Origin: an uncultured cyanobacterium | Lineage (GTDB): Bacteria > Cyanobacteriota > Cyanobacteriia > Cyanobacteriales > CAWUOF01 | NCBI GenBank assembly: GCA_963744145.1 | Contig: CAVUSO010000001.1 | Coordinates: forward strand, 3,296,001 to 3,360,000 | Direction of reading: 5' to 3' | DNA length: 64,000 nt | Shown: positions 31,703-35,202 of the stretch, in pieces | Layout of the letters: each line of letters starts with the position of its first letter | Position numbering within the stretch: the stretch's first letter is position 1 | Translations under genes and position numbers: made by a program | Notes under the pieces: generated by a model | What the model saw: the letters and a program-made list of their open reading frames with translations, nothing else | Told to the model about the DNA's origin: nothing | Database searches by the model: none

Positions 31703-32086
31703 TTAGCTAACCCGATTCAACAGAAACACAATGTACTGATTCAAACTAACGTTTTCTCTTTCAGCTTCTTCAACTAAACGACGATGTAGTGATTTTGGCA
31801 TCTGCAAAAGCACTTTACCAGTGTAGCTGTCTTGAATAATGGGTAAAGGAATATCATCCCCAGATTCATAAGCAGTTTCAATCCACAACTCTCTTGCTTC
31901 ATTGATATTGATTACTGTTTCATCCAGGGTTTCACCTTGAGTTAGACATCCGGGTAATTCTTTAATTTGGGCTACATATCCCCCTGCTGGATCAGAGTAA
32001 AGTATCACTGGATATTGAAGATTCAAATAGTATTCCAATGGCGGTTTTTCAAGTTCCGGATTCTTCTGATTCAATGTTTTCATCAT
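31703..32086 (-). CDS. hicB: HicB antitoxin
   Basis: ELPGCLTQGET; C-terminal RHH MPKSLHRRL..VSLNQY. Confidence 0.92.
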   Translation of the reverse strand: MMKTLNQKNPELEKPPLEYYLNLQYPVILYSDPAGGYVAQIKELPGCLTQGETLDETVININEARELWIETAYESGDDIPLPIIQDSYTGKVLLQMPKSLHRRLVEEAERENVSLNQYIVFLLNRVS

Positions 32087-32324
32087 TCCATTCTTCCAAT
32101 TTCAATAGTTCAACTATTTGCTGTACGTAAACTCCCTTAACTTTCTGTCCACCTTTTTTGGGGATAGTAATCTTTCTTCCCTGGGAGTCTCGGAAACTGT
32201 GATGACTACCCTTAGACCTTTTTTCTTGAAATCCAAAAGCTAACAAAATATACACTACATCCTCAAAGCGCACTTCTGGTGGTTGATTGAGGAATTGCTC
32301 GACTAATTTTTTTAATTTGCCCAT
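32049..32324 (-). CDS. hicA: HicA toxin
   Basis: GFQEKRSKGSHHSF..ITIP. Confidence 0.9.
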   Translation of the reverse strand: MGKLKKLVEQFLNQPPEVRFEDVVYILLAFGFQEKRSKGSHHSFRDSQGRKITIPKKGGQKVKGVYVQQIVELLKLEEWNDENIESEESGT

Positions 32325-32985
32325 GAAAGCAAGGTAAAGCGATCGCAGTATTGATCATAATTGATAATTGACAATTAATACCAATTCACCATGAAGATAC
32401 ATTGATGTATATTGATCTGTGGGTGAGGGTGGGTTTTGATGATTAGTAGGTAAATGTCAAACATCTCGGTGAACCCGGGCGGGTTTTTCTAATTAATTGG
32501 TAAATTTCAAAAATCTGGGCGAACCCGCCCCTACTACAGAAATCCGCAAATTGAGGATAAAATTGGTAGATACTGTCTTGATTTGTCAATGGGTAGCGAT
32601 CGCCAAATTGCCTAATTAGGGTCAAAGAGTTTAGCAGATTTGAAAATCGCCAAAATATGGTTAGGGATTTTACCATTAAAGCACTAATCTCCTGGATTTT
32701 TACCTGACCCACGCAGCCATCATCTCTCACTCATTAATGGGAGTAATGAGTGGTGAAGCATCGTGACTGTGGGCAGAAAGGCGAGCATTTTTGGCACTGG
32801 AAACCCGACGGATTGACCCTAACTATAGAGCCACCGTTTGTTCACCCAGACTGGGAATAGAAGTCAACCAGTTCCGTAGTTGTTTAAGCGAGATCCTCTC
32901 GATGCACAGTCGTCAGTTTCGTCTGTTCATCTTGGTTGAGGGATGAACATGTTCTGGTGGCGAGATTTCGCCCGCCAGATCCCGT

Positions 32986-33972
32986 CTAGACGGGTAAAGG
33001 GGTAGCGCTCGCGTAATTGGGGTCAAAAGGTGTTTGGGATTTTAAAATCCCAAACGCCAAATGTAGGAGTTTTCGCATCAGGGCTCCAACCACCTGCATT
33101 TTTACCTTCCCACGCTCCAATAATCGCTCACTCATTGCCTTGAGTAATGGGTTATGACTCATCGCTACTACGGCGGGCATATACAGCGCTTTTCGCAGTC
33201 GAGTATTGCCTATACAAGACAAGCGAGTTTTACCATGAACTGAAGTTCCTGAACTCCGCTCGCAGGGATTTAACCCAACATAAGCAACTAATTGGCGGGC
33301 ATTTTTATAATCGGTAATCCGACCAATTTCAGCTAACAATACAGCCGCAGTTTGTTCGCCAATTCCCGGAATTGAAGTCAACAGCTCACGTTGTTTTTTC
33401 AAATGGGGATGTTGGTCAAAATGGTCGCGAATTAATTGTTTGATCTCGGCTTGTTGTTGGGCGAGATATTCTAGATGCTTTCTCGTTATCAGCGCGACAG
33501 ATTCGCTCTCGGTTTCGAGCCGATTCTGCTCCTGTTGCGCGATTTCGATGAAGGATTCTAGTCGTCTGAGTAGGGCTTGTAATTCCTTAACTTCCGGTGC
33601 TGTTGGTTTCCAAAATGACGGCTTCATCGCCACACAAAAACGCGCAATTAAGCCTGCATCTACCGCGTCGGTTTTCGTTCGCAGGAGTTCACTTTTGGCA
33701 AATCCTTTGATCCGCGCTGGATTAACGATACTTACCTGATAACCAGCTTGGTAGAGGAATTCAGCTAATGCTTCCCCATAAATACTGGTCGCTTCTAAGC
33801 AAGCATGAAGTTCTACCACACCTTGACATTTGAGCCATTGTGCTAAACTTTCAAACCCTTCTAGATCATTAGTAAACTTTTTTGGTTTTGGCTTTTTCCC
33901 ACAGTCCAGTTTCAATAAAACGACATGAAAGTCTTTTTTACTGATGTCTATTCCTAAGACTGTAGATGTCAT
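32986..33972 (-). CDS. IS110 DEDD recombinase/transposase, apparently intact
   Basis: GIDISK, LEATS, KTDAVDA, SIPGIG, RSSGTS. Confidence 0.95.
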   Translation of the reverse strand: MTSTVLGIDISKKDFHVVLLKLDCGKKPKPKKFTNDLEGFESLAQWLKCQGVVELHACLEATSIYGEALAEFLYQAGYQVSIVNPARIKGFAKSELLRTKTDAVDAGLIARFCVAMKPSFWKPTAPEVKELQALLRRLESFIEIAQQEQNRLETESESVALITRKHLEYLAQQQAEIKQLIRDHFDQHPHLKKQRELLTSIPGIGEQTAAVLLAEIGRITDYKNARQLVAYVGLNPCERSSGTSVHGKTRLSCIGNTRLRKALYMPAVVAMSHNPLLKAMSERLLERGKVKMQVVGALMRKLLHLAFGILKSQTPFDPNYASATPLPV

Positions 33973-34008
33973 AAGTTTCGACCGATGTCGAGTTGATGGG
34001 TGAGAACT

Positions 34009-34285
34009 TGACAGACATTAAACTAACCTTGTTAATACAGGCTATCTCGTGACCACGAGTGCCTTAGATACTGTCGAGTTTTCTGTGCGTCTGTCATCAG
34101 CGACTGGGAGCTTATCTACAAAACAGACTTATGAGGTCTGAGGGGCGGGCCAACTTCACCACTTGCTGATGTTCTTCAGCACACTTTCTCATCTCTACTG
34201 AGCTGAGGTCGAAAACTTTTCTAGTTTCTTTAGATTTCTCACTAATCCTTGATGTACCTGCATCTTGGTAGTCCAATTATCTGTA
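34009..34285 (-). ncRNA. IS110 bridge RNA with target- and donor-binding loops (5' end approximate)
   Basis: Guides CCCGCCCCT and GTAG match the target; GACAGTATCT and ACAAG match the circle junction; closing stems CATCAGC/GCTGATG and TGACAGAC/GTCTGTCA. Confidence 0.8.
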
Positions 34286-34452
34286 TCCTTTAAAGATACA
34301 AGGGGCAGGTTCACCAGTCAATTTTGCCACCAACAGATCACCATTATAAACCTGCCCTGACCTAACAGATCAACCTCAGATTAAGTGCAATTTCATAGTT
34401 AATTGGTATAACCCGAACTCGGATTAATTGTCTTCTTCCTCACAATCTGTTC

Positions 34453-35202
34453 CTAAACTTCTGGCTCAATTCCAGCAGCGCGAAGTTGGGCTGCTAATTT
34501 TTCAGTGCGAATCCGTTCCTGTTCAGCGCGAATCCGTTCCTGTTCAGTTCGTTGACGTTCTTGGGCCATTTGCTCGGTAGCCCACAACAATAAATTCCCC
34601 AACTCATCCCACCAGCGTAGCCAATAACCCTGACGGTTTTCTCGATTTCCCTCCCATACCCCTAAAAAAAGTTGCATTTCCGGTATCCAAAACCGTTTTT
34701 GTTCTGATGCTGTCTCTAATCGATACTGTTTTGCCTCACTAAAACGATATAGTTCTAATGTGCCTGTTCTTGGCTCAAAAATGCCATAATTGGGCACTTG
34801 CAAAATCTGTTCGTAGTAGAAGAATTTTCCTGGAGGGTAAGTTTCTTTGATCGAATACTCTCCTCCTCCTGTATCTGATAAAAACTCTAATACTAAAGCC
34901 GGAATTTCGCCTTGAAGTCGAGGGGTATAACTACGAACAACTTCTGAACGGTCTACAGCGATCGGATAAATGTACGCCCAATCAGGAGCTTTCACCACTG
35001 TCTTCCCATTAATAGTGGCACAAATACCATAGTTGGTGGGAGTAAGGGCATTTTCTGGTAGTTTACCAGCCAATAGTAAGCTTTCAGTTAATGCCGCAGC
35101 CAGTGCCGGTTGATTAATATTATCCACAGGATCATCAGGTAATACAAAATCATCGGGTAACTTTTCCCAGGTAACCGTGTAAGTGGGGGTGGTAGCTAAC
35201 AT
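34453..35202 (-). CDS. Uma2 (DUF820) endonuclease with C-terminal coiled-coil repeats
   Basis: WEKLPDDF, APDW, LEFLS, YYEQILQVPNY, WLRWWD, AEQER repeats. Confidence 0.9.
   Translation of the reverse strand: MLATTPTYTVTWEKLPDDFVLPDDPVDNINQPALAAALTESLLLAGKLPENALTPTNYGICATINGKTVVKAPDWAYIYPIAVDRSEVVRSYTPRLQGEIPALVLEFLSDTGGGEYSIKETYPPGKFFYYEQILQVPNYGIFEPRTGTLELYRFSEAKQYRLETASEQKRFWIPEMQLFLGVWEGNRENRQGYWLRWWDELGNLLLWATEQMAQERQRTEQERIRAEQERIRTEKLAAQLRAAGIEPEV

Follow-up and report, generated by a model that had tools for sequence, protein, structure and literature searches.

It is established that insertion sequences (IS) of the IS110 family carry bridge RNAs and that they land in repetitive extragenic palindromes (REPs), and the mechanism known for these elements is left unchanged by the locus reported here. 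The closest described system is IS621 of Escherichia coli. In IS621 the bridge RNA is located upstream of the gene, within the left end, it contains a left target guide of 9 nt and a right target guide of 4 nt (GUAG), and it is directed to an 11-bp target with a CT core that ends in CCTAC, i.e., in the GTAG end of a REP. The natural target is described as ATCAGGCCTAC, and 144 of the 173 mapped insertion sites are located in REPs (PMC11208160; PMC11208158). IS621 is reported to occupy mostly ATCAGGCCTAC although its guide would be perfect for ATCGGGCCTAC, resulting in an rG:dT pair at position 4, and the guide pairing is described with the 3' side complementary to the top strand and with the CT core taking part in all four pairings. 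Moreover, a junction promoter with its -35 box in the right end was described for IS621 circles (PMC11208160). Next to IS621, ISPpu9 and ISPpu10 of Pseudomonas putida were described as IS110 elements residing in multicopy palindromic intergenic repeats (REP or conserved) of another host and with other targets (PMC12288879). Here, we analysed a window of 64,000 nt, i.e., the whole stretch of DNA presented above, from the genome of an uncultured cyanobacterium (7.7 Mb, 39.4% G+C), which contains an IS110 element on its minus strand that is referred to as copy A in the following.

The element is very probably an IS621-like member of the IS110 family with a bridge RNA that targets the GTAG end of a REP of its host. 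It has in common with IS621 the CT core, the position of the bridge RNA, the lengths of both target guides including the GUAG and the 11-bp target that ends in CCTAC. The open reading frame (ORF) of the recombinase matches the Pfam families PF01548 at 5.1e-26 and PF02371 at 7.6e-30 and the NCBIfam model NF033542, named IS110 family RNA-guided transposase, with 242 bits at a cut-off of 140. Its residues 6-319 align with the structures of IS621 (8wt6, E 4.6e-74) and of ISCro4 (9t56, E 1.3e-73). Allowing for the offset of two residues caused by two extra residues in the PDB chain, D9, E60, D102, D105 and S241-G242 align with D11, E60, D102, D105 and S241-G242 of IS621, for which these DEDD and serine residues were described to form the composite active site (PMC11208158). 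Between copy A and copy D, the most divergent full copy in this genome, dN/dS of the gene is 0.13 at a dS of 0.29.

Reading the minus strand of the region 32400-34500, the left junction is CCTGCCC-CT-TGTATC with the CT at 34302-34301, and the right junction is GACAGTAT-CT-ACC with the CT at 32569-32568. The genome contains four full copies (A to D), and the ends of copy A are placed at 32568 and 34302 because all four start with CT-TGTATC and finish with GACAGTAT-CT; the core dinucleotide CT is present at both junctions of each of them. The termini TGTATC... and ...GACAGTAT are not inverted repeats of one another, i.e., the element has no terminal inverted repeats. The tip of the left end represents a palindrome, TGTATC...GATACA, and the right end terminates in GACAGTATCT (32577-32568, minus strand).

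The left end is predicted to encode a bridge RNA of ~180 nt with two internal loops upstream of the gene (Table 1). From its sequence, the first loop, CCCGCCCCU...GUAG, appears to specify the 11-bp target CCCGCCC-CT-AC, and the second loop, GACAGUAUCU...ACAAG, would specify the junction at which the right end of the element itself meets its left end. The statistical weight of these matches was assessed on the 328-nt left end by 200,000 shuffles keeping the base composition. The 9-mer of the flank, allowing for at most one mismatch, was found in 2,140 shuffles, and in 320 with a GTAG at most 45 nt downstream. The exact 10-mer of the right end was found in 58 shuffles, and in a single one with ACAAG at most 55 nt downstream. 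Both guide pairs jointly were present in 0 of 200,000 shuffles. An earlier note on this DNA had claimed an intact IS110 at 32568-34302 with an intact DEDD/Ser recombinase, had given its junctions, the coordinates of its guides and a perfect site at a distance of 34 bp, and had put guides and hairpins in an order with stem-closed loops corresponding to the IS621 layout. On the minus-strand reading every one of these coordinates is correct, the ORF has its full length of 328 aa with all five catalytic residues (D9, E60, D102, D105, S241) aligned, all stems are present, and order and strand of the guides are as in IS621.

The fold of the bridge RNA is supported by covariation, and the check by folding and covariance alignment suggested in that note thereby came out in its favor. 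Five specified helices with 25 pairs were evaluated on 38 distinct sequences; this structure was specified by hand from one of the 38 sequences, which favors the model. In this alignment 95.7% of the cells pair; with the 3' partners displaced by one, two or three columns, this value falls to 22.6-34.3%. Five pairs are altered on both sides, with compensatory changes in helices 3, 4 and 5, and the observed values were reached by 0 of 500 shuffles. The consensus computed by RNAalifold alone contains four of the five helices, i.e., the two basal stems and the stems of the donor loop; for the target hairpin it departs from the structure specified by hand, pairing GUCUG with part of the right target guide and not with CAGAC. 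The fold of the single sequence shows the same two-domain shape with a weak z-score of -1.5. The GTAG of the right target guide is intact in all rows of the 38-row alignment except for L057.

Furthermore, the bridge RNA is the most conserved part of the element, because copies A and D differ at only 3 of 186 positions in this part, one of them being guide position 3, compared to a dS of 0.29 in the gene, 10 differences in 110 positions of the leader and 17 differing columns out of 42 aligned in the spacer ahead of the start codon. Two additional pairings were considered and rejected. An upstream extension of the left guide, rejected as a requirement, was suggested by the RNA sequence GGUGAAG five bases 5' of the guide and by GGTGAA abutting the target in the REP; the upstream bases at the insertion sites of relatives vary (gtgaa, gcgaa, taaaa, ataaa and ctaca). 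Pairing of AAGCUCCC with the 5' side of the target loop is contradicted by an uncompensated CGGAC in six loci (L018, L027, L033, L034, L049 and L051).

A scan of the contigs of genomes for relatives resulted in 49 loci with 54-82% protein identity, mostly from Microcoleus and also from Tychonema, Kamptonema and Chamaesiphon. Analysed were 41 of these; eight (L020, L042, L047, L052, L055, L056, L058 and L059) were dropped because they were weak matches, were truncated or could not be aligned upstream. Throughout the relatives analysed the bridge-RNA region can be aligned, and they agree with the window element in the architecture of the bridge RNA and in the donor ends, CTTGTATC... and ...GACAGTATCT. 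For 30 loci with a left junction and an ungapped 9-nt guide, the left guide was compared with flank plus core: 26 match perfectly, four have one mismatch and none has more. The right junction reads CTAC in 34 of 34 relatives. The target is mostly the same CCCGCCC-CT-AC, and 20 of the 26 perfect matches have the guide CCCGCCCCT. The other six are copies from Chamaesiphon with the guide AUUGCCCCU and the flank ATTGCCC-CT, i.e., with the target ATTGCCC-CT-AC, at sites with at least five different right flanks; therefore, guide and target have changed together in this lineage (CCC to ATT). Most guide variants that do not match are transitions preserving a wobble pair, i.e., RNA GGCGG facing DNA GACAG of the right end (8 loci), RNA AUAAG facing DNA CTTGT (4 loci), CUCGCCCCU facing CCCGCCC (1 locus) and CCUGCCCCU facing CCCGCCC in copy D, the last two having CUC or CCU instead of CCC. 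These variants fit an RNA-DNA pairing on the strands described for IS621. The CCC guide, which is common to most relatives, is regarded as ancestral.

The target of this RNA is abundant in the host. Genome-wide, CCCGCCCCTAC occurs in 119 copies compared to 0.63 expected, nearly always as ggtgaaCCCGCCCCTAC, and its CCT variant CCTGCCCCTAC occurs in 96 copies. GTAGGGGCGGGTTCACC is present together with inverted partners, and the 11-mer represents the GTAG end of palindromic repeats. An ORF of 186 aa resembling the gene of a REP-associated tyrosine transposase (RAYT; L064:1248-1808, corresponding to 6661747-6662307; NF047646 with 79.4 bits, just under the cut-off of 80) is located between 303-nt inverted repeats that are 99% complementary and hold the 11-mer (6661502-6662857), with two copies upstream and four inverted copies downstream of the ORF. 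The description of the target as a GTAG REP repeat of the host is justified by the GTAG ends of the palindromes, the copy number and the RAYT-like gene in inverted arrays. The 303-nt inverted repeats are built from repeat units of 172-192 nt that carry the targeted 11-mer. The best match of the genome to the RAYT model is a different one (100.3 bits, 6349143-6349550); it is located inside an open frame of 1,237 aa, the length of which, far above the usual length of a RAYT, suggests a fusion or a mis-joined frame.

The host repeat occupied by copies A, B and C is a transposable element of the miniature inverted-repeat type (MITE), ~300 bp long, with ATACCAATT as terminal inverted repeats, and ~107 bp on the left and 192 bp on the right flank are common to the three copies. 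Genome-wide, 51 copies of this MITE reach the junction; the element is present in three of them, and another 41 have an unoccupied site that reads exactly CCTGCCCCTAC. Within the MITE, a single REP-type hairpin has the occupied site as one of its two inverted arms and the perfect site, 34 bp away, as the other. Mapping of all genomic copies, which the earlier note had asked for, placed the four full copies and two end remnants at CC(C/T)GC(C/T)C-CT-AC sites in REP-type repeats and none at an unrelated site. Likewise, its statements that the target is a multicopy GTAG REP, found here also in inverted arrays around the RAYT-like gene, and that copy A has a one-mismatch site next to a perfect empty one (32524-32534) hold for this genome. 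The copies carry two guide alleles, CCC in A, B and C and CCU in D; the guide of copy D reads CCUGCCCCU although its site reads CCCGCCC. Through the frameshift, copies B and C have lost ~66 C-terminal residues.

Table 1. Coordinates of the features of the element and its surroundings in the window, and copies of the element in the genome.
Feature	Position	Strand	Description
Whole IS element, copy A	32568-34302	minus	1,735 bp including the CT core at both ends
Non-coding left end	33973-34300	minus	328 nt: tip, leader of ~110 nt, then bridge RNA
Target-binding domain	34096-34170	minus	basal stem AUCAG/CUGAU; guides and apical hairpin
Left target guide	34149-34141	minus	CCCGCCCCT (RNA CCCGCCCCU); equals flank plus core, with one mismatch at copy A
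Target-loop hairpin	34140-34124	minus	CAGAC/GUCUG, between the two target guides
Right target guide	34119-34116	minus	GTAG (RNA GUAG)
Donor-binding domain	34010-34095	minus	basal stem GACAGAC/GUCUGUC; inner stems AGGC/GCCU and CUCG/CGAG
Left donor guide	34075-34066	minus	GACAGTATCT (RNA GACAGUAUCU); equals the right end of the element
Right donor guide	34032-34028	minus	ACAAG; complement of the left-end tip
Recombinase gene	32986-33972	minus	328 aa; RuvC-like DEDD domain, coiled coil, Tnp domain with catalytic Ser
3' tail	32568-32985	minus	418 nt; decayed partial gene copy, then functional right end
Hybrid sigma-70-like promoter (predicted)	34293-34321	minus	TTGACT of the host repeat and TATCTT of the left tip, 17 nt apart; 9 of 12 matches
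Host repeat, left part	34303-34409	minus	ends in REP arm GGTGAACCTGCCC, the left half of the occupied target
Host repeat, right part	32376-32567	minus	begins with ACC, the right half of the target
Unoccupied perfect guide match	32524-32534	plus	CCCGCCCCTAC, 34 bp from the right end
Copy A (window)			100%; intact ORF, 328 aa; at CCTGCCC-CT-ACC
Copy B			99%; ORF ends at 273 aa, past the catalytic Ser, owing to an insertion of one base; at CCTGCCC-CT-ACC
Copy C			99%; same frameshift as B, 0 of 1,736 positions differ; at CCTGCCC-CT-ACC
Copy D			93% identical to A; intact ORF; at the perfect site gaaCCCGCCC-CT-ACag, in a different repeat family
Right-end remnant			40 bp; in another copy of the MITE family of A, B and C
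Left-end remnant			33 bp; at CCCGCTC-CT, in a third repeat family

Several observations weigh against the reading as an IS621-like element guided to the REP. The site of copies A, B and C and of the right-end remnant leaves an rC:dA mismatch at guide position 3 without any extended pairing of the right guide, and genome-wide none of the 119 perfect sites is occupied by a copy with a CCC guide. A frameshift is present in copies B and C, i.e., in two of four. The 16-mer of the circle junction, in which the right end (RE) would be joined to the left end (LE), does not occur in the assembly, which would be expected of a form that is transient, and no joint of RE to LE was found in contigs from four DNA runs. 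The right non-coding end of 418 nt is atypical of the IS110 group, which is described as having short right ends; the left end of 328 nt is long, as in the group. The predicted promoters are matches to the consensus alone. Finally, searching Rfam 15 (E up to 1) gave no match to a bridge-RNA family, whereby it is unsettled whether Rfam 15 holds one. A match to SNORD82 in that search (24 bits at a cut-off of 43) is located outside of the element and was dismissed as chance.

The mismatch and the unoccupied perfect sites are also the starting point of the strongest rival explanation. It says that a single guided entry into the MITE family took place and that copies A, B, C and the right-end remnant then spread by homologous recombination or gene conversion, in which case the element may be immobile in this genome; we regard this as a real possibility, though less probable than not. 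The young copies are all located at one position of one repeat family, the large majority of which is empty, and their guide mismatches this MITE site although the perfect sites exist. Copies B and C are identical and share the frameshift, i.e., they have no full-length recombinase of their own. Their host repeats differ at 4 positions although the elements are identical; the element has thus moved between pre-existing MITE copies. The flanks of B and C show their nearest differences at a distance of 28 nt on the left side of the element and of ~176 nt on its right side, leaving room for a conversion tract within flanks of 107 bp and 192 bp. From the sequence, the move between B and C is explained either by guided insertion in trans or by gene conversion via the flanking homology, and the data fit both. 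Against a spread by recombination as the sole process stand copy D and the left-end remnant, which are inserted in two other REP families, and the relatives, which are found at many unrelated loci with perfect guide matches. Moreover, the gene of copy A is intact, its RNA is conserved and its promoter is plausible, a natural target with one mismatch is also reported for IS621, and a frameshifted copy could be mobilised in trans. The idea that perfect sites are unstable and mismatched copies survive was rejected as a general rule, as 26 of 30 relatives occupy perfect sites. Two joints skipping 1,733 and 1,730 nt were also considered as traces of excision and rejected; they are probably derived from empty copies of the host repeat elsewhere.

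A further reading starts from the 3' tail, by which the window element differs from its relatives: their right end follows ~14 nt past the ORF. The tail, common to all four copies, is a decayed copy of the 3' half of the gene with 71-72% nucleotide identity, stops and an internal gap. Copies A and D differ at 17 of the 418 tail positions (~4%) without indels, i.e., the tail evolves ~seven times slower than synonymous sites. It is conceivable, and in our view unlikely, that two guide alleles covering both REP alleles (119 CCC and 96 CCT) together with a functional 3' tail, acting in cis or as RNA, constitute a system beyond the IS621 model. On that reading the tail may be e.g. a regulator of recombinase expression and not junk. 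Tested and rejected were the tail as a coding region, with small frames that change non-synonymously between A and D and no conserved frame, and the tail as a strongly structured RNA, with a z-score of -2.37 that is moderate and not decisive. In one contig from a related organism, 33014 is connected with 32604 and 409 nt are passed over, which looks like a tail-less form; the tool marks the intervening sequence as not known. A search of 300 sampled genomes from the order gave no match to the first ~220 nt of the tail. Just past the ORF, at 32977-32991 on the minus strand, a comparison by eye of GTCTAGACGGGATCT with the canonical right end ATCAAGACAGTATCT gives 11 identities in 15 positions, suggesting an inner right end that has been disabled, as if a copy and the remnant of a second one had become joined. 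The tail also contains a perfect 9-bp hairpin, CACUCAUUA/UAAUGAGUG. For copies of ISPpu9, a further small-RNA gene is described downstream of the gene of the transposase, which represents a loose parallel to the tail.

Quite improbable is the view that all copies are inactive relics and that the guide matches are historical. The frameshifts in two of four copies, the two end remnants, the low copy number and the contigs lacking a circle junction would agree with it. Against it, the gene shows a dN/dS of 0.13, the rate of change in the bridge RNA is far below that of synonymous sites, the ORFs of copies A and D are full-length with all catalytic residues, and the identity of B and C at two loci implies a very recent copying event. 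An explanation in which the protein or the REP hairpin alone picks the target and the RNA-like matches are incidental, to which the location of the target inside a palindromic repeat and the target stem-loop of ISPpu10, reported as an extra specificity determinant (10.64898/2026.03.19.712850), could be ascribed, is extremely unlikely in view of the four matches found jointly in none of the 200,000 shuffles, the joint change of guide and target in Chamaesiphon, the mostly wobble-compatible mismatching variants and the RNA guidance reported as experimentally shown for the close homologue IS621.

Returning to the IS621-like element guided by its bridge RNA, we infer that it is active, and by homology with IS621 transcription, circle formation and catalysis would be expected to proceed as follows. 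The element would excise as a circle. A -35 box, TTGACA, is located at 32590-32585 on the minus strand, 16 nt before the right end, and in the relatives TTGAC is present in 35 of 35 cases at a distance of 16-17 nt from their right end. The joined RE-LE would read TTGACA-18 nt-TATCTT, in agreement with the promoter described for the IS621 circle, and this junction, uniting the -35 box of the right end with the -10 box of the left tip, would drive expression of bridge RNA and recombinase. The donor loop would hold the RE-CT-LE junction and the target loop the sequence CCCGCCC-CT-AC of a REP, and a tetramer of the recombinase with one bridge RNA would exchange the strands at CT via a phosphoserine intermediate. 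Copies B and C would depend on recombinase supplied in trans. Moreover, copy A may also be transcribed while it is integrated, using the TTGACT of the MITE as part of the predicted hybrid promoter.

Compared to IS621, the window element differs in several aspects. The mismatch at the occupied site is rC:dA at position 3 in contrast to rG:dT at position 4. The host is a cyanobacterium and the REP carries CCCGCCC, in contrast to ATCAGGC for IS621. A leader of ~110 nt precedes the RNA in the 328-nt left end, whereas the ~177-nt transcript of IS621 is described as starting at the promoter. The tail resulting from a partial gene duplication is unlike IS621, and the element is known here from its sequence alone. 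A literature search combining IS110 and bridge RNA, cyanobacteria and REP found no paper describing a cyanobacterial case. The RNA string of the clade was not found in the searched portion of the supplements of Durrant et al. (PMC11208160), which does not show its absence from them. Supplementary file 4 of the same work lists two unrelated GC-rich IS110 elements with targets containing CCCGCCCCTAC beside a GGGCGGG...CCCGCCC palindrome; the bridge RNAs given for them are unrelated to that of the window element. Similar REP ends may serve as IS110 targets in other phyla.

With this locus, a filamentous soil cyanobacterium and its relatives provide a natural and apparently intact pair of a bridge recombinase with its bridge RNA. 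Its landing site is defined and is present in ~100-200 genomic copies. Tools for RNA-programmed insertion in cyanobacteria might be developed starting from this pair. The association of IS110 elements with REPs, known from E. coli and Pseudomonas, is extended to cyanobacterial REPs. Moreover, one genome combines two guide alleles and two target alleles, a repeatedly occupied mismatched site, a predicted promoter supplied by the host repeat and a tail-less relative. It thereby represents a compact natural system in which to study the influence of mismatches, expression and homologous recombination on the sites at which such elements accumulate.

Finally, some observations concern the surroundings. 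In the leader of the left end of the window element no tandem repeat was found. In several relatives, including Microcoleus loci, the stretch from the left-end tip to the bridge RNA contains tandem repeats; at L016 (979-1216), the sole locus checked, a 20-nt unit, CCGACAATCAGGCGATCGAG, is repeated 11.9 times. A fifth, distant match to the IS110-family DEDD domain (37.8 bits) is located in an open frame of 442 aa at 4052920-4053402 and is unrelated to the four copies. Copy A and its MITE occupy the intergenic space between a HicA/HicB toxin-antitoxin pair downstream (31703-32324) and a gene of a putative endonuclease of the Uma2 family upstream (34453-35202), both on the minus strand. The HIP1 octamer is abundant in the host genome, with 7,811 copies compared to 41 expected.

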